A DNA stretch of 64,000 nucleotides, from the NCBI RefSeq assembly GCF_050920415.1, contig NZ_CP169309.1, one strand, 5' to 3'. Source of the stretch: Escherichia coli. Lineage in GTDB: Bacteria > Pseudomonadota > Gammaproteobacteria > Enterobacterales > Enterobacteriaceae. The notes below the pieces were generated by a model. It saw only the letters and a list, made by a program, of their open reading frames with translations, did not search any database and had not been told where the DNA came from. Positions 21,934-62,600 of this stretch are shown here, piece by piece. The translations under genes and the position numbers were made by a program. Positions within the stretch are counted from its first letter, which is position 1. Each line of letters begins with the position of its first letter.

Positions 21934-22363
21934 ACGTAAACTCTTTCCGGTTGTTGTCGATAGCTCTATATCCCTCAACCGGAAAATAATAATACCAAAA
22001 TGCTTAGCGCGGCTAATAATCGCCTAATCCAAACGCCTCATTCATGTTCTGGAACAGCCGCTCAAATGTACTCAGGATACGCGGTTCGCTGATTTCCAGG
22101 AAATTGTCGTAATTCAGCGACCTGTCCCGTGTATCACGGGCCTGCTAATCCATCAAGGAATGCATTGCGGAGTGAAGTATCGAGTCAAGCCAGATTTCGC
22201 GATCAGGATTCTGTGTGATGATTACATTGCCAGGCCCGGGGCTGTTTAGTCATCGCCGCACAGTGCTGAGATTTCAACCTGTTGCAGGGAAAATGAGTAG
22301 ATTTAGGGCAAGTGTGCTGCCAAACCCAACTTTTACGCGGGGAAGGTAGATTTCGTTGGAAGG

Positions 22364-28330: not shown

Positions 28331-28714
28331 TCATCTCGCCGTCAGTTGTTTTGATTTCCGGTAGCCTGCTGCGTAAAGAGCTACATTTGGAAGACATACA
28401 CCAGTTTCTGGTTGCTTATGTCCAAACTCATTCGCGTACACAATGGCCGCTCTCTCCAGATTGCGTCTGTATTCTTTCTGTTGCCAGATCACGTCCTGTG
28501 CCATGAACTTAATTGGCTTAGCGTCTTCTATGCGCTCAGGCGTTTCGTGAGTACCTTTAGCCTGAATCTGCGCTCTGCTTAGAGTAGGGCGGTGTAATAC
28601 TTCTGAACTTATTGCTTCTTCGCGGGCCAGTACGCCGTTAGCTAATGCCTTTGCCTTTAAACGCTCACGACGACGAGAACGTGAATTGCCTTTGAACTGA
28701 GTTCTGCGTGTCAT
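28331..28714 (-). CDS. N-like antitermination protein (P22 gp24 type)
   Basis: Arg-rich N-terminus RRTQFKGNSRSRRRER; C-terminus LPNVALYAAGYRKSKQLTAR; downstream of pL/nutL. Confidence 0.7.
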   Translation of the reverse strand: MTRRTQFKGNSRSRRRERLKAKALANGVLAREEAISSEVLHRPTLSRAQIQAKGTHETPERIEDAKPIKFMAQDVIWQQKEYRRNLERAAIVYANEFGHKQPETGVCLPNVALYAAGYRKSKQLTAR

Positions 28715-29215: not shown

Positions 29216-29587
29216 TTACTTAAGAACGAGTCCGTTTAAGGCATCAAGGATTTTGGAAACATAACTTCCAAAAATGTAGGCGCAAAATGCGAACACGAAA
29301 CTGACAACGACCGCAGATGCCTTGATGGTGATTTTTGCTGAGCTAATGCTTGTCTCAATACCTGACAGACGAGAATCTACAGATTTTATATCTGACTTTA
29401 CTTCAGCGAGATCGCGCTTGATGTATTCAACATCAGACTCTAGCTTTGCAACTCTAGCCTCAAGCATGTTACCTCCGCCGTTTCCTCCACCATGCCGTGA
29501 GTATGCATCATCAGTGGAATAGTGTCCAATTGGGCGAGATATGTTTTGATTTGGACGAAGCTGAGCAACCTTGTTATCTAAACTCAT
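29216..29587 (-). CDS. rex-slot cassette gene B: small protein with Gly-rich segment, coiled coil and C-terminal TM helix
   Basis: 123 aa; GGGNGGGN, heptad-like LEARVAKLESDVEYIKRDLAEVKSDIKSVDSRL, hydrophobic AVVVSFVFAFCAYIFGSYV; overlaps gene A by 14 bp; resembles XhlA-type architecture from memory. Confidence 0.55.
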   Translation of the reverse strand: MSLDNKVAQLRPNQNISRPIGHYSTDDAYSRHGGGNGGGNMLEARVAKLESDVEYIKRDLAEVKSDIKSVDSRLSGIETSISSAKITIKASAVVVSFVFAFCAYIFGSYVSKILDALNGLVLK

Positions 29588-30011
29588 CGCGAACTGATCC
29601 TGTTATCTTCACGTCAAAAAACGAACTTTTTACATCAATTACTTCGCCTTTATCAGGATTAACCAGTGATGCTCTAACTTCGAATATCCCAGGCTTGATA
29701 ATTTTCACCCTTGGGAAGTTAATTCTCATAGAAGTTGATACGATGGTTTCTCCATCGTTGGCTTCTGCTACCGTAAAAAACTTATGGTTGGAGTACAGTT
29801 TTGTGTCAATTGGTATCGGTATTTCTTGAGCATTGAAAACCTCAATGCCTATGGAATATTTTTTTGTAGCCTTAAGGCCGATAAAAAAAGCGCCAAATGA
29901 TAGATCCACTTCATGGGAGTCTTTATCCATTTCATAGATAAGAACTGGAGTTACTGGGTTGCCTTCATCCATCGCAATCGGAATGATATAAGAAATACGT
30001 TCTTTAATCAT
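29574..30011 (-). CDS. rex-slot cassette gene A: hypothetical soluble protein, 145 aa
   Basis: ATG 7 nt after cI stop on same strand; AT-rich; no family recognised. Confidence 0.55.
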   Translation of the reverse strand: MIKERISYIIPIAMDEGNPVTPVLIYEMDKDSHEVDLSFGAFFIGLKATKKYSIGIEVFNAQEIPIPIDTKLYSNHKFFTVAEANDGETIVSTSMRINFPRVKIIKPGIFEVRASLVNPDKGEVIDVKSSFFDVKITGSVRDEFR

Positions 30012-30742: not shown

Positions 30743-30806
30743 TATCACCGCAAGGGATAAATATCTAACACCGTGCGTGTTGACTGTTTTACCTCTAGCG
30801 GTGATA
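30743..30806. promoter_or_regulatory. OR3-OR2-OR1 operators with pRM/pR
   Basis: TATCACCGCAAGGGATA, TAACACCGTGCGTGTTG, TACCTCTAGCGGTGATA; -35 TTGACT and -10 GATAAT for pR. Confidence 0.8.
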
Positions 30807-30832
30807 ATGGTTGCATGTACTAAGGAGGTTGT

Positions 30833-31171: not shown

Positions 31172-31468
31172 ATGGAACGAACAAGTTACAGCAAACTATC
31201 ACAGCGTGACGTTGATCGCGCAGAAACAGATTTACTCATCAACCTATCAACGCTTACCCAGCGCGGTCTGGCAAAGATGATTGGCTGTCATGAATCGAAG
31301 ATAAGCAGAACGGACTGGCGGTTTATTGCTTCGGTCTTGTGTGCTTTCGGAATGGCATCAGACATCAGTCCGATTAGCAGGGCTTTTAAGTATGCGCTTG
31401 ATGAAATCACCAATAAAAAACGCCCGGCGGCAACCGAGCGTTCTGATCAAATACAAATGGAATTTTAA
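31172..31468 (+). CDS. cII: CII-like transcriptional activator (mosaic)
   Basis: 98 aa; C-terminal TNKKRPAATERSDQIQMEF matches lambda CII, N-terminal ~75 aa diverge. Confidence 0.65.
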   Translation: MERTSYSKLSQRDVDRAETDLLINLSTLTQRGLAKMIGCHESKISRTDWRFIASVLCAFGMASDISPISRAFKYALDEITNKKRPAATERSDQIQMEF

Positions 31469-31630
31469 CAACATCCAACGAGGTAATTATATGCGAAAAA
31501 CGCAGGAAAATAAACGCGTTAATCACCGAAAAGATGTGCTACGTGACCAGTTTTATCAGGGGGTTAATCCAGCAATAGCTGTGCCACTGAGAGAAATACT
31601 TAACAGGTACAAAACTTCGGAGAAGTCAAA

Positions 31631-32407
31631 ATGAGCATGAATCTTATGGCTAAGGCCATGAATATAAAGGTTGGCAACCCACTGAGAAAACTGGTTCTGA
31701 TTAAACTTGCCGATAACGCCAATGATAATGGCGAATGCTGGCCTTCATATCAACATGTCGCTGACCAGTGTGAGGTGAGCAGATCGACAGTAAAAAGTCA
31801 CATTAGGGCACTGGAAGAGATGGGGCTTTTGAAAAGGGAATTCAGAAGAAAAGGAGAGCTTAACCAGTCAAACGTTTTTTATCTGACGCTGGATAATGCA
31901 CAACAAATCCAACCAGAATCAGGTGGGGCAGGAGCTGCCCGGGGTGGGGCAGGAGCTGCCCTAGGGGGTGGGGCAGGAGCTGCCCCCAGAACCTATCACT
32001 CTTTTGAACCAGTCAATGAACCTAAAAACATTATGTTCGAACATGTCCGAACGGAGTGTGAAAAAACTCCTGACCGTCACGAAGAAACCGACAAGGCATT
32101 CGAGGAAATATTCTGGTGTGCAGGCATGCGGAAGGCCGGGAAGAAAAACGCAGCGTCGGCATTCAGAACACAGTTCAGGGAATGGCGTAAAACTACCAGG
32201 GGTACGGCAAGCGAGTTTGCCACGATGCTGGCAGAAGACATCGCATGCAGGAATGGTAAGCAGTTCGGATTCGACAGGTTGTTACCATCGAGCTACCTGA
32301 ACGGTCAACGCTGGAACGACGAGAAGCCAGAAACTATTCAACCACAATCCAAACCATCATCCGCAATCACCGTATCGAAAACTGGCTACGTGTTTTTCGA
32401 CAGGTGA
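31631..32407 (+). CDS. replication initiator (O-like, HTH N-terminus) containing origin iterons
   Basis: 258 aa; internal Gly/Ala-rich segment encoded by the iterons; position between cII and helicase. Confidence 0.6.
   Translation: MSMNLMAKAMNIKVGNPLRKLVLIKLADNANDNGECWPSYQHVADQCEVSRSTVKSHIRALEEMGLLKREFRRKGELNQSNVFYLTLDNAQQIQPESGGAGAARGGAGAALGGGAGAAPRTYHSFEPVNEPKNIMFEHVRTECEKTPDRHEETDKAFEEIFWCAGMRKAGKKNAASAFRTQFREWRKTTRGTASEFATMLAEDIACRNGKQFGFDRLLPSSYLNGQRWNDEKPETIQPQSKPSSAITVSKTGYVFFDR
31923..31985. repeat. three 18-bp direct repeats GTGGGGCAGGAGCTGCCC, candidate ori iterons
   Basis: Copies at 31923-31940, 31944-31961, 31968-31985; each internally near-palindromic. Confidence 0.55.
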
Positions 32408-32514
32408 ACCATGAAATCAAAAATCAAATCGCTACTGGTCGCTGGTTATAACCACGGCTGGTTAAGTATTTCGTTTGTCGATTTCTGGTTTAAAAATCTC
32501 AATCTGAGGGAATC

Positions 32515-34395
32515 ATGACGCCAAGTGAACTTAGCGACCTGCTTTGGGCGCAGGTTGACAGGGTGGCTCCGCACCTGTTGCCAAACGGCAAGAAAGAGGG
32601 GCATGAGTGGGTTGCCGGTAACGTCAACGGTGACAAGGGAAACAGCCTTAAGGTCAACCTTAGCGGCAAGAAAAAATGGGCTGATTTCGCTGAGGGAGAC
32701 GGCGGTGACATGCTTGATTTGTGGATGGCATGTCGTGGAATTAACCTGCATCAGGCTATGCAGGAAGCGAAAGCCTTTCTCGGTATCAAGGATGACGATC
32801 ACCATTTCGATGCCAAACGTGAGAAGAAATTCTCCAGACCTGATCGCAAGAAAATCGCCCGCTACGTTACCAGAACAGAATCCCATCTTGAGTACCTGCA
32901 ATCGCGTGGCATATCGCCAGAAGTCGTAAAGCGCTACGAGGTTGTCAGCGGCAAGGTGTGGAATGGAGAACGAGAACTTGATGCACTGGTGCTTCCGTAC
33001 AAACGCGATGGTGAGTTGTTGCAGGTCAAGCGAATCAGCACTGAGCGCCCGGACGGGAAGAAAGTCATTATGGCAGAAGGTGATTGTGAACCTTGTCTGT
33101 TCGGATGGCAGGCTCTGGACGCTGGCGTGAGGGCGGTTGTGCTTTGCGAAGGCGAAATTGATTGTATGAGCTATGCGCAATACGGCATCTCGGCGTTATC
33201 CGTGCCGTTTGGTGGAGGAAAAGGCGCTAAGCAGCAGTGGATTGAGTTTGAGTATCACAACCTCGACAGGTTTGAGGAAATATTCATCTCGATGGACGTT
33301 GATGATGTTGGTCGTGAAGCCGCAAGGGAAATCGCAAGCCGACTCGGTGAACATCGTTGCCGTCTTGTTACTCTGCCGTACAAAGACATCAACGAATGCC
33401 TGATGAACGGTGTTACCGAGGATGAAATCTGGCAGTACATCGGCACGGCATCCTACTTCGATCCTGAAGAACTCTACAGCGCGCGAGAGTTTTACCAGGA
33501 CACTATCAACGCTTTCTACGGCAAGCAGCAGTATCTATTTAATCCACCGTGGGAATCTCTGGCAGATAAATTCCAGTTCCGTGAGGCCGAGTTGACGCTG
33601 GTCAATGGTGTGAACGGTCACGGAAAAACGGAGGTTGTCGGGCATATGGCACTTGAGGCAATGCGTCAGGGTGTGAAGACGTGCATCGCGTCACTTGAGC
33701 TGAAGCCTGGTATTCTCCTTAAGCGCCTTACCCGTCAGGCAACGTGCTGCAAGATGCCGCCAGTGCTTGAAATTGACTCTGCATTTAAATTCTATGACGA
33801 AAGACTTTGGGTGTTTGGCCTGACCGGAACGGCGAAAGCCGACAGGTTGATCGAAATATTCGACTACGCTCGCCGCCGATACGGCATCCAGTTATTCATC
33901 ATCGACAGCCTGATGAAATGCGGCATAGGTGACGATGACTATAACGGGCAGAAAGCATTTGTTGACTCGATTTGCGACTTCAAAAACAAAACAAACTCCC
34001 ACGTCATTCTCGTTACTCACTCCAGAAAAGGAGACAGCGAAGAAAAACCAACCGGGAAAATGGACGTAAAAGGCTCTGGAGCGATAACAGACCTGACAGA
34101 CAACCTTTTCATCATCTGGCGTAACAAGGCTCGCGAGAGAGCGTTACAGAGAGTTCAGAGTGGTGAAAAGATGTCAGAGAAGGACGAACAGCTACTGGCA
34201 TCTCCGGCATCTGTTTTGATGCTTGAAAAACAACGTAACGGCGAAGGTTGGGAAGGTGGTGTCCCGTTGTTCCTTGACGAGCAATCGCACCAGTTCCTGC
34301 AACTTGAATCAGGATCGCCTTATAGCTACATCGCCAATATGCCGAAATCGGAATATGACGAGGCGTGGCGACAGGAAAACGTGACGGAGTATTAA
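32515..34395 (+). CDS. primase (toprim) / DnaB-like helicase fusion replication protein
   Basis: 626 aa; toprim-like VVLCEGEIDCMSY, Walker A GVNGHGKT, Walker B-like LFIIDSL. Confidence 0.65.
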   Translation: MTPSELSDLLWAQVDRVAPHLLPNGKKEGHEWVAGNVNGDKGNSLKVNLSGKKKWADFAEGDGGDMLDLWMACRGINLHQAMQEAKAFLGIKDDDHHFDAKREKKFSRPDRKKIARYVTRTESHLEYLQSRGISPEVVKRYEVVSGKVWNGERELDALVLPYKRDGELLQVKRISTERPDGKKVIMAEGDCEPCLFGWQALDAGVRAVVLCEGEIDCMSYAQYGISALSVPFGGGKGAKQQWIEFEYHNLDRFEEIFISMDVDDVGREAAREIASRLGEHRCRLVTLPYKDINECLMNGVTEDEIWQYIGTASYFDPEELYSAREFYQDTINAFYGKQQYLFNPPWESLADKFQFREAELTLVNGVNGHGKTEVVGHMALEAMRQGVKTCIASLELKPGILLKRLTRQATCCKMPPVLEIDSAFKFYDERLWVFGLTGTAKADRLIEIFDYARRRYGIQLFIIDSLMKCGIGDDDYNGQKAFVDSICDFKNKTNSHVILVTHSRKGDSEEKPTGKMDVKGSGAITDLTDNLFIIWRNKARERALQRVQSGEKMSEKDEQLLASPASVLMLEKQRNGEGWEGGVPLFLDEQSHQFLQLESGSPYSYIANMPKSEYDEAWRQENVTEY

Positions 34396-34421
34396 ATGAC
34401 CATCTACATCACTGAGCTAAT

Positions 34422-34452
34422 AAAAGGCCTGCTGGTAATCGCAGGCCTTTTT
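34422..34452 (+). terminator. tR2-like intrinsic terminator before ninB
   Basis: AAAAGGCCTGC-loop-GCAGGCCTTTTT perfect inverted repeat with flanking A/T runs. Confidence 0.55.
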
Positions 34453-34472
34453 ATTTGGGGGAGAGGGAAGTC

Positions 34473-34913
34473 ATGAAAAAACTAACCTTTGAAATTCGAT
34501 CTCCGGCACATCAGCAAAACGCTATTCACGCGGTACAGCAAATCCTTCCAGACCCAACCAAGCCAATCGTAGTGATCATTCAGGAGCGCAACCGCAGCTT
34601 AGACCAGAATCGGAAGCTTTGGGCTTGCCTTGGTGACGTCTCTCGTCAGGTTGAATGGCATGGGCGTTGGCTGGATGCAGAAAGCTGGAAGTGTGTGTTT
34701 ACCGCAGCATTAAAGCAGCAGGATGTTGTTCCTAACCTTGCCGGGAATGGCTTTGTGGTAATAGGCCAGTCAACCAGCAGGATGCGTGTAGGCGAATTTG
34801 CGGAGCTATTAGAGCTTATACAGGCATTCGGTACAGAGCGTGGCGTTAAGTGGTCAGACGAAGCGCGACTGGCTCTCGAATGGAAAGCGCGATGGGGAGA
34901 TCGGGCTGCATGA
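34473..34913 (+). CDS. ninB: NinB (Orf recombination mediator)
   Basis: MKKLTFEIRSPAHQQNAIHAVQQILPD near-identical to remembered lambda NinB. Confidence 0.85.
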   Translation: MKKLTFEIRSPAHQQNAIHAVQQILPDPTKPIVVIIQERNRSLDQNRKLWACLGDVSRQVEWHGRWLDAESWKCVFTAALKQQDVVPNLAGNGFVVIGQSTSRMRVGEFAELLELIQAFGTERGVKWSDEARLALEWKARWGDRAA

Positions 34914-35437
34914 CTATCAAATCAAATACGCCAGCACACGACAAGGACTGCTGGCAAACGCCGCTTTGGCTTTTTGATGCACTGGATATTGAGTTTGGAT
35001 TCTGGCTGGATTCGGCAGCGAGCGACAAAAACGCTCTGTGCGCTCACTGGCTAACTGAGGCCGACGACGCGCTCAATTCTGAGTGGGTAAGCCACGGTGC
35101 AATCTGGAATAACCCACCGTACAGCAATATCAGGCCGTGGGTGGAAAAAGCCGCTGAGCAGTGTATACAACAGCGACAGACGGTAGTGATGCTTGTGCCA
35201 GAGGATATGTCAGTCGGATGGTTCAGCAAGGCTCTGGAGAGTGTCGACGAAGTTCGTATTATCACTGATGGACGGATTAATTTTATCGAACCATCGACAG
35301 GGCTAGAGAAGAAGGGAAACAGCAAAGGTTCCATGCTGCTGATTTGGCGACCGTTCATCAGTCCTCGACGGATGTTTACTACCGTATCCAAAGCGGCATT
35401 GATGGCGATCGGGCAGGGCGTCAGGAGGGCGGCATGA
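34910..35437 (+). CDS. phage DNA N6-adenine methyltransferase (orphan, Dam-like)
   Basis: 175 aa from ATG overlapping ninB stop; NPPY catalytic motif. Confidence 0.65.
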
Positions 35438-35616
35438 GACGACAGCGACGAAGTATCACCGACATAATCTGCGAAAACTGCAAATACCTTCCAACGAAGC
35501 GCTCCAGAAATAAACGCAAGCCAATCCCAAAAGAATCTGACGTAAAAACCTTCAACTACACGGCTCACCTGTGGGATATCCGGTGGCTTAGAGAACGTGC
35601 GAGGAAAATAAGGTGA
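35434..35616 (+). CDS. ninE: NinE
   Basis: [27 protein letters not shown] matches remembered lambda NinE. Confidence 0.75.
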
Positions 35617-35783
35617 TTGACCCAAATCGAAGTTACGAACAAGAAAGCGTAGAGCGGGCTTTAACGTGCGCTAACTGCGGTCAGAAGCTGCATGTGCTTG
35701 AAGTTCACGTGTGTGAGCACTGCTGCGCAGAACTGATGAGCGATCCGAATAGCTCAATGTACGAGGAAGAAGACGATGAATGA
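35613..35783 (+). CDS. ninF: NinF (GTG start)
   Basis: [56 protein letters not shown] resembles lambda NinF; below ORF-track cut-off. Confidence 0.6.
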
Positions 35784-36498
35784 GTTAATAAATGGCAATG
35801 CTATCAAAATGACAAGCATTGAAATCGCTGAGTTGGTGGGTAAGCGTCAAGACAATGTGAAACGTACCATCGAAACGCTGGCTAAAAATGGTGTTATCCG
35901 GCTTCCTCAAATTGAGGTTTCCGAAAGAATCAATAACTTAGGGTTCAATGTTCAGTACGAGCATTACGTCTTCGAAGGCGAACAAGGTAAGCGAGACAGT
36001 ATTGTCGTTGTTGCCCAGTTGTCGCCGGAATTCACCGCTCGTCTTGTTGACCGTTGGCGAGAGCTTGAGGAAACTGCGGTTAATATCCCCAAAACGCTAC
36101 CAGAAGCGTTGCGCCTTGCTGCTGATCTTGCTGAGCAGAAAATGCAACTGGAAAACCAGCTCGCAATTGCCGCACCTAAAGTTGAGTTTGCCGATCGCGT
36201 TGGCGAGGCCAGCGGAATTTTGATTGGAAACTTTGCAAAGGTTGTCGGTATTGGTCCAAACAAACTGTTTGCGTGGATGCGTGATCACAAAATCCTTATT
36301 GCTTCAGGTTCCCGGCGCAATGTGCCAATGCAGGAATATATGGATCGCGGCTATTTCACAGTGAAAGAAACAGCGGTCAACACAAATCACGGAATACAGA
36401 TATCGTTCACCACAAAAATCACCGGGCGTGGTCAACAGTGGCTGACCAGAAAGCTGCTCGATAACGGAATGCTGAAAGTAACAGGGGAGGCTGCTTAA
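35776..36498 (+). CDS. Rha-family phage regulatory / antirepressor-like protein
   Basis: 240 aa; N-terminal Rha-like domain; position in nin region. Confidence 0.55.
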   Translation: MNELINGNAIKMTSIEIAELVGKRQDNVKRTIETLAKNGVIRLPQIEVSERINNLGFNVQYEHYVFEGEQGKRDSIVVVAQLSPEFTARLVDRWRELEETAVNIPKTLPEALRLAADLAEQKMQLENQLAIAAPKVEFADRVGEASGILIGNFAKVVGIGPNKLFAWMRDHKILIASGSRRNVPMQEYMDRGYFTVKETAVNTNHGIQISFTTKITGRGQQWLTRKLLDNGMLKVTGEAA

Positions 36499-36788
36499 TG
36501 GCTAACCTACGCAAAGAAGCGCGCAACAGAGAATGCCAGGTACGTATTTACGGCGTATGCAATGGCAATCCTGAAACTACAGTTCTGGCACATTACCGGA
36601 TGGCTGGAATTTGCGGAACGGGAATGAAACCTGACGACCTGATCGGCGCATGGGCTTGTAGTGACTGCCACGCGGAGATCGACCGACGCACAAGGATTCT
36701 CGACAACAAAGACGCCAGACTTTACCACCTCGAAGGCGTGATAAGGACGCAGGCGATACTGCTGAAGGAGGGGAAGATTAAGCCATGA
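36498..36788 (+). CDS. NinX-like protein (Cys-rich)
   Basis: 96 aa with CxxC and CxxxxH; nin-region position. Confidence 0.5.
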   Translation: MANLRKEARNRECQVRIYGVCNGNPETTVLAHYRMAGICGTGMKPDDLIGAWACSDCHAEIDRRTRILDNKDARLYHLEGVIRTQAILLKEGKIKP

Positions 36789-37146
36789 ACGAATATCAGT
36801 TTGTGCTTCCATACCCGCCGTCGCTGAACACCTACTGGCGAAGACGGGGAGTCAATACTACATCAGCGATAAAGGCCAGAAATACCGAAAAGACGTTCAG
36901 CAAATCATCCGCCAACTTAAGTTAGACATTTTCACCAAATCACGACTCCGCATCAAAGTCATCGCAGACGTTCCAGACTCCCGCCGCCGCGACCTCGATA
37001 ACATCCTGAAGGGTTTACTCGACTCCCTTATCCACGCCGGATTTGCGGAAGACGACGAGCAATTCGATGACATTCGCGTAATTCGTGGTGTGAAAGTACC
37101 AGGCGGACGGCTTGGAATAAAAATCACCGAACTGGAGAACGTATGA
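36785..37146 (+). pseudogene. rusA: RusA-family Holliday junction resolvase, interrupted by a frameshift near 36845-36850
   Basis: Frame 1 gives MNEYQFVLPYPPSLNTYWRRRG then a stop at 36923; the +2 frame continues SQYYISDKGQKYR...DSRRRDLDNILKGLLD...GGRLGIKITELENV to 37146; G-run at junction. Confidence 0.7.
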
Positions 37147-37331
37147 ACGCCACAATTCAAACGATACCAGAGCTTCTTATCCAGACACGAGGCAATCAGA
37201 CCGAAGTGGCGAGGATGCTTTCCTGCGCAAGAGGAACAGTGCTCAAGTACAACCGAGACAGCAAAGGCGAGCGTCACGTAATAGTTAACGGCGTCCTGAT
37301 GGTCAAACAGGGCAAAAGGGGAAGGCCATGA
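37143..37331 (+). CDS. ninH: NinH-like protein
   Basis: IPELLIQTRGNQTEVARMLSCARGTVLKY resembles lambda NinH. Confidence 0.7.
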   Translation: MNATIQTIPELLIQTRGNQTEVARMLSCARGTVLKYNRDSKGERHVIVNGVLMVKQGKRGRP

Positions 37332-37951
37332 GACTAGAAAGCGTAGCTAAATTTCATTCGCCAAAAAGCCCGATGATGAGTGACTCACCACGGGCCACGG
37401 CTTCTGACTCTCTTTCCGGTACTGATGTGATGGCTGCTATGGGGATGGCGCAATCACAAGCCGGATTCGGAATGGCTGCATTCTGTGGTAAGCACGAACT
37501 CAGCCAGAACGACAAACAAAAGGCTATCAACTATCTGATGCAATTTGCACACAAGGTATCGGGGAAATACCGGGGTGTGGCAAAGCTCGAAGGAAATACT
37601 AAGGCAAAGGTACTGCAAGTGCTCGCAACATTCGCTTATGCTGATTATTGCCGTAGTGCCGCGACGCCGGGCGCAAGATGCAGAGATTGCCACGGTACAG
37701 GCCGTGCGGTTGATATAGCCAAAACAGAGCAGTGGGGGAGAGTTGTTGAGAAAGAGTGCGGAAGATGCAAAGGTGTCGGCTATTCAAGAATGCCAGCAAG
37801 CGCTGCATATCGCGCTGTAACGATGCTAATCCCAAACCTTACCCAACCCACCTGGTCACGCACTGTTAAGCCGCTGTATGACGCTCTGGTGGTGCAATGC
37901 CACAAAGAAGAGTCAATCGCAGACAACATTTTGAATGCGGTCACACGTTAG
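37328..37951 (+). CDS. Q: late-gene antiterminator Q, lambda type
   Basis: 207 aa, matches remembered lambda Q including zinc-finger cysteines. Confidence 0.9.
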   Translation: MRLESVAKFHSPKSPMMSDSPRATASDSLSGTDVMAAMGMAQSQAGFGMAAFCGKHELSQNDKQKAINYLMQFAHKVSGKYRGVAKLEGNTKAKVLQVLATFAYADYCRSAATPGARCRDCHGTGRAVDIAKTEQWGRVVEKECGRCKGVGYSRMPASAAYRAVTMLIPNLTQPTWSRTVKPLYDALVVQCHKEESIADNILNAVTR

Positions 37952-37993
37952 CAGCATGATTGCCACGGATGGCAACATATTAACGGCATGATA

Positions 37994-38022
37994 TTGACTT
38001 TTTGAATAAAGTTGGGTAAATT
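37994..38022 (+). promoter_or_regulatory. late promoter pR' (-35 TTGACT, -10 TAAATT, 17-bp spacer) with qut region
   Basis: Near-identical to remembered lambda pR' sequence. Confidence 0.65.
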
Positions 38023-38058
38023 TGACTCAACGATGGATAAATGCACTCGTTAAATAAA

Positions 38059-38085
38059 GCCCTGAGTTAATAGCTGGGGCTTTTT
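38059..38085 (+). terminator. hairpin plus T5 downstream of pR' (candidate tR')
   Basis: GCCCTG...CTGGGGC stem followed by TTTTT. Confidence 0.4.
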
Positions 38086-38383
38086 GCGTTTTAAGCACGA
38101 CCTTTCTGAAAGCGCATCAAACCAAATACCAGACAGACCAAAATAATCACCTTATCCGCTGTGGCTACGGTGCGGTGTGCTTTGCATAAAAGAAAACCAG
38201 CTCAATGGCTGGCTTCGTGAAAGCGGGTGGCAAGAGGTTGCGCTAACAACCTCATGCCGTTTTGCCCGTGCATATCGGTCACGAACAAATCTGATTACTA
38301 AACACAGTAGCCTGGATTTGTTCTATCAGTAATCGACCTTATTCCTAATTAAATAGAGCAAATCCCCTTATTGGGGGTAAGAC

Positions 38384-38707
38384 ATGAAGATGCCAGAAAA
38401 ACATGACCTGTTAGCCGCCATTCTCGCGGCAAAGGAACAAGGCATCGGGGCAATCCTTGCGTTTGCAATGGCGTACCTTCGCGGCAGATATAATGGCGGT
38501 GCGTTTACAAAAACAGTAATCGACGCAACGATGTGCGCCATTATCGCCTGGTTCATTCGTGACCTTCTCGACTTCGCCGGACTAAGTAGCAATCTCGCTT
38601 ATATAACGAGCGTGTTCATCGGCTACATCGGTACTGACTCGATTGGTTCGCTTATCAAACGCTTCGCTGCTAAAAAAGCCGGAGTAGAAGATGGTGGAAA
38701 TCAATAA
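38384..38707 (+). CDS. S: holin/antiholin S (dual-start MKMPEK)
   Basis: 107 aa, matches lambda S. Confidence 0.95.
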
Positions 38708-56537: not shown

Positions 56538-57439
56538 ATAAAGAAGATGGCTTTAAGTGCTCCTTCTGCTGAAAGCCTCAGCATGAATGTGCAATGTTGA
56601 TTCGCGCTAAAGCAGAGATATTTATCTGTAATGGTTGTGTATCTCTTTGCGTTGAAGCGATGGGGAAAGAGTTAAATTCTAGAAAAACAATGTTAGATGT
56701 GAGCATAAAACAGTGAAGCCCCAACTGCGGTAACAGTCAGGGCTTCGGTATCAACAAAACTTACGAGGTATTATTGATATGTCAAGCTTAGCAAAGTCAA
56801 CTGTAAATTGCACTAATAGCATCATCATTTCTGACGTCAAGATTCATATGGATTCAGAGGGTCGTTACTCGCTTAATGACCTTCATGTAGCGTCTGGAAA
56901 GGAGGAAAAACATCAGCCAGCTTTCTTCATGCGTAGAAATGAAACTATTGAATTGATTAATGAAATTTTTAATTCTGCGGATATGCAGAATAAGAATCCC
57001 GTCATTTCTAAGAAAGGTAGATATGGTGGAACATACGTGTGCAAGGAGCTTGTTTACTCCTACGCCATGTGGATTAGCGCAGCATTTGCGCTGAAGGTTA
57101 TCCGCGCATATGACGCAATGGTTACTGCCACACAAGAGAGGAAGGCTATTGGCGGTAAAACTTCAGTAGCTGAACGCACGCCGCTACGCGATGCAGTAAA
57201 CATGCTGGTAGGAAAGAAAGGACTTCGCTATGACGATGCATACAATATGGTTCATCAGCGTTTTGGTATTGACAGCATTGATGAACTTTCAATTGAACAA
57301 ATCCCGCTGGCCGTAGAGTACATCCACAGGGTAGTGCTTGAAGGTGAGTAGACTGGCCCCCTGAATCTCCAGACAACCAGTATCACTTAAATAAGTGATA
57401 GTCTTAATACTAGTTTTTAGACTAGTCATTGGAGAACAG

Positions 57440-57805
57440 ATGATTGATGTCTTAGGGCCGGAGAAACGCAGACGGCGTACCACACAGGAAAAGATCGCAA
57501 TTGTTCAGCAGAGCTTTGAACCGGGGATGACGGTCTCCCTCGTTGCCCGGCAACATGGTGTAGCAGCCAGCCAGTTATTTCTCTGGCGTAAGCAATACCA
57601 GGAAGGAAGTCTTACTGCTGTCGCCGCCGGAGAACAGGTTGTTCCTGCCTCTGAACTTGCTGCCGCCATGAAGCAGATTAAAGAACTCCAGCGCCTGCTC
57701 GGCAAGAAAACGATGGAAAATGAACTCCTCAAAGAAGCCGTTGAATATGGACGGGCAAAAAAGTGGATAGCGCACGCGCCCTTATTGCCCGGGGATGGGG
57801 AGTAA
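57440..57805 (+). CDS. insC: IS2 transposase OrfA
   Basis: [26 protein letters not shown] recognised. Confidence 0.9.
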
Positions 57806-58668
57806 GCTTAGTCAGCCGTTGTCTCCGGGTGTCGCGTGCGCAGTTGCACGTCATTCTCAGACGAACCGATGACTGGATGGATGGCCGCCGCAGTCGTCAC
57901 ACTGATGATACGGATGTGCTTCTCCGTATACACCATGTTATCGGAGAGCTGCCCACGTATGGTTATCGTCGGGTATGGGCGCTGCTTCGCAGACAGGCAG
58001 AACTTGATGGTATGCCTGCGATCAATGCCAAACGTGTTTACCGGATCATGCGCCAGAATGCGCTGTTGCTTGAGCGAAAACCTGCTGTACCGCCATCGAA
58101 ACGGGCACATACAGGCAGAGTGGCCGTGAAAGAAAGCAATCAGCGATGGTGCTCTGACGGGTTCGAGTTCTGCTGTGATAACGGAGAGAGACTGCGTGTC
58201 ACGTTCGCGCTGGACTGCTGTGATCGTGAGGCACTGCACTGGGCGGTGACTACTGGCGGCTTCAACAGTGAAACAGTACAGGACGTCATGCTGGGAGCGG
58301 TGGAACGCCGCTTCGGCGACGATCTTCCGTCGTCTCCAGTGGAGTGGCTGACGGATAATGGTTCATGCTACCGGGCTAATGAAACACGCCAGTTCGCCCG
58401 GATGTTGGGACTTGAACCGAAGAACACGGCGGTGCGGAGTCCGGAGAGTAACGGAATAGCAGAGAGCTTCGTGAAAACGATAAAGCGTGACTACATCAGT
58501 ATCATGCCCAAACCAGACGGGTTAACGGCAGCAAAGAACCTTGCAGAGGCGTTCGAGCATTATAACGAATGGCATCCGCATAGTGCGCTGGGTTATCGCT
58601 CGCCACGGGAATATCTGCGGCAGCGGGCTTGTAATGGGTTAAGTGATAACAGATGTCTGGAAATATAG
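57763..58668 (+). CDS. insD: IS2 transposase OrfB (DDE domain)
   Basis: 301 aa recognised as IS2 InsD. Confidence 0.9.
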
Positions 58669-59105
58669 GGGCAAATCCAGTGAGTTCATTGGCAAACAAG
58701 AGAAGAAAACCAACGAGCTTTCTGCAAAAGAAGCAAACAGCCTTGTATGGTTATGGGATTATGCCAACCGCTCACAGGCATTATTCCGCGAATTGTATCC
58801 GGCATTAAAACAAATTCAATCGAACTATTCCGGCAGATGTCATGACTGCGGTTATGAGTTCTCCCGTATTATCGATATAGCGAGAGACGTTTTAATTAAT
58901 CACACACGAGATGTTGATATCAATGAGCCAGACGGACCAACGAATCTTTCCGCATGGATGAGACTTAAGAATAAAGAATTACCTCCTTCAGTACATAATT
59001 ACTGACAGATAACCAACGCAACGACCCAGCTTCGGCTGGGTTTTTTTATGCCCAAAATTCACCGTAGCCATGCTGCGGCGATTCCTTGTATCTGGAGCAA
59101 ATTAA

Positions 59106-61063
59106 ATGACAGACATTACAGCCAATGTTGTAGTGAGCATGCCTTCGCAACTCTTTACTATGGCCCGCTCTTTTAAAGCCGTAGCTAATGGTAAAATTTA
59201 TATCGGTAAAATTGACACTGACCCGGTAAATCCTGAAAACCAGATTCAGGTTTATGTAGAGAACGAAGACGGCTCTCACGTTCCTGTTTCGCAACCAATC
59301 ATCATTAACGCTGCTGGATATCCGGTATATAACGGACAGATTGCCAAATTCGTAACTGTGCAAGGCCATTCTATGGCTGTATATGATGCGTATGGTGCAC
59401 AGCAGTTCTATTTTCCTAATGTGCTGAAGTATGACCCTGATCAGTTTAAGCAGCAGTTAGAAAGCGATGCTGATGGAATGGGAGATGCATTAGTTACAGT
59501 TAAACAACCGTACACTGGTGCTACTTCTATTTCACAGCACATTAAAAATTCACAGGCTATAAGTGTTATTGATTTTGGCGCTACAATTGACGGAACGCTT
59601 CACCCTTTAAGCGAGATATTTTCAACACTATCAGCCGCTCAGATGGTATATCCATTTGTTTCATCTCTATCTCAATCTGTTGATTATGCTGCGCTTCAGT
59701 CCGCATGTAACACGGGAAAAACAGTGCTTATTCCAAAGGGAACTGGTTACTATAATTCAACTATTTTTCTGAAAAACTCCGTCAGGATTGTTGGAGAGGG
59801 AACTGATACAATAAATAGAGCGCAATCATTTATGTCTATTGTTGGTAATATTTCAGCCTTTGCTTTAGATCAAGGTGATTCACTATCGACAAAAATGATT
59901 CAGATTTTTATTGATGGTCTTTATATTTTCTATGATCCAGGAACCACACCAACGAATCCTGAAGATGATGGTGGGAAAATTGCATTTAATTTCTACTCGA
60001 CAATTCCAAATTCAACAAGCTTGGAAATGTCTGAAATTAAAAACTGTACAGTTCATGGTGCATGGTCATGCTTTAATGATCAGACTGGCACATACTTGAC
60101 AAAACTTACGAATGTGTGGGCCAGAAACTGCCATAATGGTTTTACAAAAGGAACTGGCACTACCATTCTGATGGAAAGATGTTATACATCTGGATGTATA
60201 TCACCATATCAGTTTGGTTCTGTCTTTGCAGCTACAATGATTAACTGTGCCATGGATGGATCAAATATTTCGTTAAACGCAGGTTCGCTTGGTGGGGCTG
60301 GCGTTCATGTTCTTAACACACATAGTTTTAACATTATTGGTTTTGATGCGGAGGGTAACACCATCTCTACAGATGGTTATGGAGAGGCAGCACTATTCCA
60401 TTTCGAAAATAGTAGTGGTGGCATTTCTGGCCTGACTGCACATCAGAACAGCATGCGAAGTGTTGCGCCAAGTGATGCTGGTGTAGTTTCCTACATCAGG
60501 GCGTCAGGTAGCAGCGATGTAAAATTGAGTCATCAGAAGATGATTTATCTGACACCAACACAGTTGCATATACTGGGTCTGGGTATCCCATCATGCTACA
60601 TGCAACTGACACAGCTAAAATAAGCGTCTTTAATAGCAGATTCAGGGCGACTACCACTGGTACCCCTGTCTTAAGTACGCTAAGTACTGGTGATGTATCA
60701 TGGTATGACTGCCCTAAAAAAACAGGACTTATCGTAGATGGTTATTCACAAATAACATCTAAGGAAGGATTGCAAACATCATGCTTCTATACCAGTAAAG
60801 GCTCTACTGCTGTTGCTGAAAATACTCCGACAACACTTTTCTCTCTACCAGATTCGCAAGGTACTTACATTATTAGCGTATGGGGGGCTGGAAGCGGAGA
60901 AAATTACGCATCTACACAACTGGCAATGTATGATGGAGATAAGCTAATTCTTGTTGCGTTAAAAATAGCAGCATTTCTTAGTTTTTCAGCAACAGGGAGA
61001 ATTGTAACCATTACAAGCCAGGGCACAGGCACTTTTAATTGGACCTACACAAAAATAGGTTAA
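59106..61063 (+). pseudogene. tailspike (P22 gp9-type head-binding N-terminus) split into two overlapping ORFs, 59106-60623 and 60593-61063; apparent frameshift
   Basis: N-terminus [34 protein letters not shown] matches P22 tailspike head-binding domain; second frame is open from 60512 with no SD-preceded start. Confidence 0.6.
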
Positions 61064-62520: not shown

Positions 62521-62540
62521 ATAAATGGTGTCCCCTGCAG
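62521..62540. repeat. prophage att core, integrase/argW-proximal copy
   Basis: Exact repeat of 22364-22383. Confidence 0.8.
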
Positions 62541-62600
62541 GAATCGAACCTGCAATTAGCCCTTAGGAGGGGCTCGTTATATCCATTTAACTAAGAGGAC
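62526..62600 (-). tRNA. argW: tRNA-Arg (argW)
   Basis: Reverse strand reads GTCCTCTTAGTTAAATGGATATAACGAGCCCCTCCTAAGGGCTAATTGCAGGTTCGATTCCTGCAGGGGACACCA, 75 nt with T-arm and CCA end. Confidence 0.9.

Follow-up and report, generated by a model that had tools for sequence, protein, structure and literature searches.

An orphan N6-adenine methyltransferase of the phage Dam family, reportedly specific for GATC, between ninB and ninE of a P22-like Escherichia coli prophage

The window analysed here is a whole stretch of 64,000 nucleotides of Escherichia coli DNA (contig NZ_CP169309.1 of assembly GCF_050920415.1), and its gene of interest is dam, an orphan phage N6-adenine DNA methyltransferase gene at 34910..35437 on the + strand, in the nin region of a prophage of about 40 kb. 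The dam open reading frame is intact, with an ATG at 34910 and a TGA stop at 35435-35437, and it encodes a 175-amino-acid protein in which the catalytic motif IV, read off the sequence, is NPPY at residues 68-71 (35111..35122, + strand). Upstream lies the ninB/orf recombination mediator gene (34473..34913, + strand, ATG at 34473; PF05772 at 1.4e-53, and phrog_72) and downstream lies ninE (35434..35616, + strand; PF05322 at 3.2e-43), and these two Pfam matches bear out the initial annotation's placement of the gene between ninB and ninE. The three genes are joined by ATGA stop/start overlaps at both dam junctions, at 34910-34913 with the ninB stop and at 35434-35437 with the ninE start. The same arrangement is usual in related loci: in a sample of 80 IMG/VR viral contigs, which were chosen for protein identity and all encode the identical Dam protein, dam is adjoined by ninB in 74, by ninE in 75 and by both in 69. 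Records of related phages and E. coli also show that the ninB-ninE interval is a variable slot, which can hold dam alone, dam plus NinX (DUF2591), or dam plus a protein resembling 3'-phosphoadenosine 5'-phosphosulfate reductase, with or without NinD.

The Dam protein is a full-length member of the PF05869/TIGR01712 family of phage N6-adenine methyltransferases. It matches Pfam PF05869, "DNA N-6-adenine-methyltransferase (Dam)", at 6.4e-65 and 218 bits (cut-off 28) over profile positions 1-167 of 169; the NCBIfam equivalog TIGR01712 (phage_N6A_met, "phage N-6-adenine-methyltransferase") at 9.7e-80 and 266 bits (cut-off 97) over positions 1-165 of 165; and phrog_111 at 8.6e-88. Together with the intact reading frame, these three libraries uphold the earlier description of a 175-amino-acid NPPY N6-adenine methyltransferase. 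The Pfam search of the protein returned PF05869 only, with no classical Dam or MT-A70 match. Residues T17, D34, N68, P70, R122 and F125 are invariant in 52 diverse homologues whose identity ranges down to 31%, and P18, P69, Y71 and N137 are kept in at least 90% of the same set; among the conserved features are WxTP in the N-terminal part, the Asp34 that closes the first strand, the catalytic NPPY loop and a hairpin spanning 121-141, with R122, F125, N137 and S141. The wider family is large, comprising 8784 representatives of 50%-identity clusters (E ≤ 0.001). Databases also contain predicted proteins in which Dam is joined to NinE, NinB, CII or holin domains, probably as a result of frameshifts or mistakes in gene calling.

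An AlphaFold2 model of the protein, made with 52 homologues, has a predicted local distance difference test score of 95.6 and a predicted template modelling score of 0.91, and folds as one compact alpha/beta domain of the Rossmann type. As modelled, Dam is a small single-domain enzyme with no separate target-recognition domain, and the model superposes on the catalytic cores only of larger methyltransferases. A sequence search of the PDB with the protein gave nothing meaningful (best E 0.24), that is, no relative with a solved structure by sequence.

The founding members of PF05869/TIGR01712, phage T1 Dam (237 amino acids) and Haemophilus phage HP1 Dam (173 amino acids), are 31% and 35% identical to the window's Dam, respectively, and share with it WxTP, the LD pair, NPPY, R122, F125 and N137. 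Like it they are small single-domain proteins with no annotated restriction partner in their own genomes. T1 Dam differs in having a 45-residue N-terminal extension and an insertion, and the genomic contexts differ as well, since T1 Dam follows a helicase gene and HP1 Dam lies at the end of an early operon. Another PF05869 protein, gp03 of the lactococcal 936-type phage MP1, has NPPY and shares WxTP, LD, R122, F125 and N137 at about 34% identity; unlike the window's Dam it is only 140 amino acids long, lacks the 125-137 loop and the C-terminal helix, and is encoded between terminase genes rather than in a nin region. M.Phi93DAM, an enzyme of a 936-type phage described as having only the NPPY motif, was found by single-molecule real-time sequencing and DpnI/DpnII digestion to produce G(m6A)TC and to protect DNA from DpnII (PMC4190342). 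We assume that M.Phi93DAM, known here by description and not by sequence, belongs to the same family, on the basis of its described NPPY motif and the terminase-gene position of the MP1 homologue. As the lactococcal host has no Dam, the anti-restriction benefit of the 936-type enzyme is direct.

Two better-known groups of adenine methyltransferases are set apart from this family. The classical alpha-class enzymes (E. coli Dam, T4 Dam and DpnM) have DPPY and a DNA-recognition domain, whereas the window's Dam has NPPY, lacks that domain and is about 100 residues shorter; the overlap of its model with EcoDam, T4 Dam and DpnM comes to only 105-111 core residues, 8-11% of them identical. It does not belong to the classical Dam family. 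The GATC specificity of the VT-2 enzyme and that of classical Dam are regarded as convergent (PMC7139368). The MT-A70-type "Dam" of Shiga toxin (Stx) phages (M.EcoGV / M.EcoPA8orf6770P) is likewise a prophage-borne orphan annotated as a GATC adenine methyltransferase, and such an enzyme can co-occur on the same Stx phages (PMC6602927). Unlike the window's Dam, however, it has DPPW, belongs to the MT-A70 family, is encoded near int, needs a partner protein, PNB-2, and prefers 16S rRNA. With an NPPY motif, no MT-A70 Pfam match, METTL3-METTL14 only at rank 49 in the Foldseek list (probability 0.25), and an upstream gene that encodes NinB and nothing like PNB-2, dam falls outside the MT-A70 type, and a motif scan of the window revealed no MT-A70-type gene and no other methyltransferase candidate. 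Two candidate equivalences were considered and rejected. The prophage rRNA methyltransferase of Gong et al. 2023 is the DPPW MT-A70 enzyme near int and not this gene, and is kept as a caution; the non-specific adenine methylases Hia5 and Hin1523 are related to classical Dam and not to PF05869.

Among PADLOC models, the best matches of the Dam protein are orphan-methyltransferase "oMTase" models (4e-19), and its matches to type II methyltransferase models are weak (4e-07). Dam is an orphan methyltransferase and not the modification half of a type II restriction-modification system; the initial annotation had noted that no restriction endonuclease adjoins it, and the Pfam assignments of the neighbouring genes, the PADLOC results and the co-occurrence counts for the neighbour YbcO (below) agree with this.

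The protein has an exact counterpart in the Shiga toxin phage VT2-Sakai. All 175 of its residues are identical to those of VT2-Sakai orf32 (NP_050531.1), which likewise lies between NinB and NinE. Orf32 is the sole annotated methyltransferase in VT2-Sakai, and among VT2-Sakai open reading frames of at least 80 codons the motif (D/N/S)PP(Y/F/W/H) occurs in orf32 only. Because orf32 is the only amino-methyltransferase candidate in that phage, we infer by elimination that it is M.EcoVT2Dam. Orf4 had been entertained as a second methylase and the real M.EcoVT2Dam, and was rejected, as it is a DUF551 protein and the motif is in no other open reading frame. M.EcoVT2Dam is cited as GATC-specific in three later papers that credit its cloning by Radlinska & Bujnicki 2001 (PMC6602927, PMC7556043, PMC7139368), so the dam enzyme is, through the identical protein, reported to methylate the adenine of GATC at N6; expression in a dam-negative host, which the initial annotation had proposed, has according to the citing papers already been done for this protein. 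At the protein level there is no difference between the two, and they occupy the same ninB/ninE slot; what differs is the carrier, an Stx phage for M.EcoVT2Dam and a P22-like, lambda-immunity prophage at argW in the window. The same protein is also found in Phi24B (where it is called CM2 or dam), Stx2 II, Min27 and HK140, and the HK97 copy is 99% identical.

The genes around dam form a rightward early operon. The open reading frames from 31172 to 37951 encode, in order, CII, a helix-turn-helix replication protein, a primase/helicase, NinB, Dam, NinE, NinF, a KilAC/Rha antirepressor, YbcO, RusA (frameshifted), NinH and Q. A pR-like promoter that would drive this cro...dam...Q operon lies beside cI at 30780..30808 on the + strand (TTGACT-17-GATAAT, matching the consensus at 10 of 12 positions), and cro is the first gene after it, before CII. 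Between the primase/helicase gene and ninB, at 34422..34456 (+ strand), the sequence and its RNA fold reveal a terminator-like G+C hairpin with a U-run (AAAAGGCCTGC-TGGTAATC-GCAGGCCTTTTTATTT). The hairpin is symmetric, flanked by an A-run and, on the opposite side, by a T-run; it folds as RNA with an 11-bp stem, and the minimum free energy of the whole stretch is -23.8 kcal/mol with a z-score of -1.9. It lies in what we take, by analogy with lambda, to be the position of tR2. An N-type antiterminator gene is present at 28331..28714 on the - strand (PF25694 N_peptide, 1.5e-15), and its product would be needed for read-through of this hairpin. From the tR2-like hairpin ahead of it, the pR-like promoter under cI repression and its translational coupling to both neighbours, we predict that dam is a delayed-early gene of the lytic cycle, and in the lysogen it is probably not expressed. 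In Phi24B, the expression pattern of CM2, which is 100% identical to NP_050531.1, was linked to the lytic cycle (PMC3342100).

The gene is abundant and its product nearly invariant. At the DNA level the ninB-dam-ninE region has matches in 2201 of 5426 complete E. coli genomes (about 40%) and in 425 phage records, with a best identity of 97.7% among the latter; for the surrounding 1.4-kb region no best DNA match reaches 99%, and 317 phage records fall at 95-99%. Across the 80 IMG/VR loci, which were picked for protein identity, the dam DNA has 50 alleles with 62 polymorphic sites, every one of them synonymous. In an unselected phage set, too, 201 of the 257 copies that exceed 60% identity, each in a phage record, encode a protein at least 99% identical to Dam, and purifying selection is strong. 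The prophage is also poor in the tetranucleotide that the enzyme is reported to modify: 96 GATC sites are observed between 22300 and 62500, where a Markov model predicts 201 (ratio 0.48), compared with 95 observed and 93 expected (ratio 1.02) in the host flank (1-22300). GATC is the palindromic tetranucleotide that differs most between prophage and flank, CTAG and GGCC being low in both, and the small-terminase gene region contains a single GATC. Such depletion is consistent with selection on phage GATC sites; it does not specify the kind of selection.

These observations are, we think, probably explained if dam is a standard orphan adenine methyltransferase of lambdoid phages, which is specific for GATC, is expressed in the lytic cycle and tops up the methylation provided by host Dam. 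The enzyme would be an S-adenosylmethionine-dependent Rossmann-fold protein that methylates the GATC adenine at N6. As its translation is coupled to that of ninB and ninE in the rightward early (pR) operon, downstream of the tR2-like terminator, it would be made only after loss of repressor and N-dependent antitermination, while phage DNA is being replicated. It would then supplement a limiting supply of host Dam and bring phage DNA, as it is replicated and packaged, to full GATC methylation. In the next host, full methylation might shield that DNA from methylation-sensitive DpnII/MboI-type nucleases, and it might also guard it against nicking by host MutH and against SeqA binding at hemimethylated or unmethylated GATC; this benefit is one that we infer, while GATC specificity and lytic expression are taken from the papers cited above. 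The initial annotation's suggestion of an anti-restriction or regulatory methylase is a plausible guess at its role, and a regulatory role in the lysogen is disfavoured.

Several points weigh against this explanation. E. coli already has Dam, and it is not evident what a second GATC methylase would add. That the host enzyme is in short supply for phage DNA is taken here as background. A 2020 paper describes the function of phage Dam as not well understood (PMC7556043), and our literature searches found no direct functional study of the nin-region methylase. For the GATC specificity we rely on later citations, and orf32 is tied to M.EcoVT2Dam by elimination. The nearest solved fold to the Dam model is PCIF1, an RNA cap methyltransferase, and another "Dam"-annotated enzyme of Stx phages, from a different family, methylates rRNA (PMC10810198). 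Finally, the hairpin upstream of ninB is only modestly more stable than shuffled sequence, as its z-score shows, and a simple terminator scan did not list it.

A regulatory (epigenetic) role in the lysogen, in which Dam would supplement host Dam and so stabilise lysogeny or tune prophage or host promoters, is unlikely. It was raised by the authors of the Phi24B study, who pointed out that stable 933W lysogeny needs host Dam and who detected the Phi24B protein with antisera in lysogen cultures; the Phi24B expression pattern is nevertheless linked to the lytic cycle and fits a spontaneously induced sub-population (PMC3342100). In the window, moreover, dam lies in a cI-repressed pR operon behind the terminator-like hairpin, and no GATC sites are present in the pR/oR core, in the late-promoter region (37940-38390) or in the hairpin region. 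Host Dam already methylates about 99.9% of GATC sites (PMC6602927). A methylome of the lysogen, which the initial annotation had proposed as a check, would tell little, since GATC is masked by the host's own Dam and dam is probably silent in that state.

It is also improbable, to a similar degree, that the main job of dam is not to counter restriction but to blunt host mismatch repair on phage DNA while this replicates and recombines, a burst of Dam activity removing the hemimethylated GATC that MutH needs. This idea arises from the coupling of dam to the recombination mediator NinB/Orf in the great majority of the related loci, as counted above. If it is true, recombination of the NinB and RecT type between diverged phages would be allowed, and lambdoid mosaicism would be actively promoted.

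Less probable still is that the real substrate is not GATC in DNA, and that the enzyme acts on RNA or has a relaxed adenine specificity. The PCIF1 fold match and the analogy with the rRNA-methylating MT-A70-type Stx-phage enzyme are all that suggest it. That enzyme, however, is of a different family with a different motif and lies near int and not in a nin region; the non-specific Hia5 group falls outside PF05869; the protein identical to Dam is reported to be GATC-specific; and the distant family members T1 Dam, HP1 Dam and M.Phi93DAM have been named or shown to be GATC methylases.

That dam is an inert passenger, an intact frame with no function in this strain, we regard as very improbable. 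The prophage does show damage: rusA is frameshifted, an IS3-family element sits within an ant-like gene and the tailspike frame is broken. This copy of dam may as a result of such decay never be expressed, which would leave the identity of the gene unaffected. The frame is nonetheless intact, its product is identical to that of the viable phages VT2-Sakai and HK140, and the polymorphism among its 50 alleles is wholly synonymous; in any case this alternative bears on the present copy alone and not on the function of the gene.

The weakest alternative is a restriction-modification pair, in which YbcO (36498-36788), the only nuclease-like neighbour in the operon, would be the cutter that matches the dam methylase. 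To assess it, downstream content was counted in those 55 loci for the identical methylase whose downstream sequence runs to at least 4.5 kb: YbcO is present in 23, NinG is there instead in 21, neither is found in 11, and in no locus (0) are both found. The cryptic prophage DLP12 has ybcO-rusA and no dam, VT2-Sakai has dam and no ybcO, and YbcO matched no PADLOC model. From this distribution YbcO appears to stand in for NinG, usually together with RusA, and not to be the partner of dam; the cognate nuclease nearby that might have overturned the orphan assignment was looked for in YbcO and is not there. Although YbcO is a "putative nuclease" in Pfam, belongs to a PHROG labelled HNH endonuclease and shares an operon with dam at a distance of 1 kb, the counts contradict the pairing, the rusA gene adjoining it is frameshifted in the window, and we give the idea practically no credence.

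The prophage that carries dam extends from 22363 to 62540 and has 21-bp direct repeats (GATAAATGGTGTCCCCTGCAG) at its two ends, at 22363 and 62520. It is integrated at argW next to yfdC, and its right repeat overlaps this tRNA-Arg(cct) gene at 62526-62600; the first 20 kb of the window has a match of 100% identity in E. coli strain MFDS1022581, whose argW site is empty. The element is a hybrid, with a small terminase, a portal and a tailspike head-binding domain of the P22 type and an immunity region of the lambda type, and its cI-cro immunity region is 99.4% identical to those of the lambda-immunity phages mEp234 and HK106. Two open reading frames of 145 and 123 amino acids (phrog_5893 and phrog_6136) lie between cI and N at 29216-30011 on the - strand; neither has a Pfam or PADLOC match, and neither is covered by the lambda-immunity phages matched at cI-cro. 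They occupy the slot where lambda carries rexAB. Lysogens usually express the genes found there, which makes the two frames candidates for an uncharacterised exclusion function.

Three other loci of the prophage are disrupted or may be. The rusA gene (36785-37150) has a 1-bp deletion near 36850 (GGGGA-G versus GGGGAAG), the gap appearing against all 20 of the 20 related-locus matches listed, and its frame breaks after 46 codons; it is either a pseudogene or a sequencing error. An IS3-family element within 56779-59005, with orfA at 57395-57805 and orfB, which encodes an rve integrase domain, at 57763-58668, interrupts an antirepressor-like gene, of which it leaves a KilA-N part at 56779-57351 and a P22_AR_C part at 58643-59005. 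The tailspike gene (59106-61063) encodes a P22-type head-binding domain in its first ~113 residues. A search of the remainder against a phage collection found no match except a partial one at 87% that reaches nucleotide 706 of the 2101-nucleotide query, and the remainder could be a novel receptor-binding domain; the frame breaks near 60600 and resumes in another frame to 61063, so the tailspike gene may be frameshifted.

The Dam protein itself receives its name automatically from the NCBI annotation pipeline. Radlinska and Bujnicki are said to have cloned the VT-2 enzyme and determined its GATC specificity in 2001, and as the identical protein was thus reported long ago and its gene is very widespread, the discovery value of the present copy is small. 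Its residual value is as a reminder of three general questions, on which the window offers nothing particular: why phages of Dam-positive hosts carry a GATC methylase of their own, why these same phages are about two-fold depleted in GATC, and how a minimal enzyme of 175 residues without a recognition domain reads GATC.
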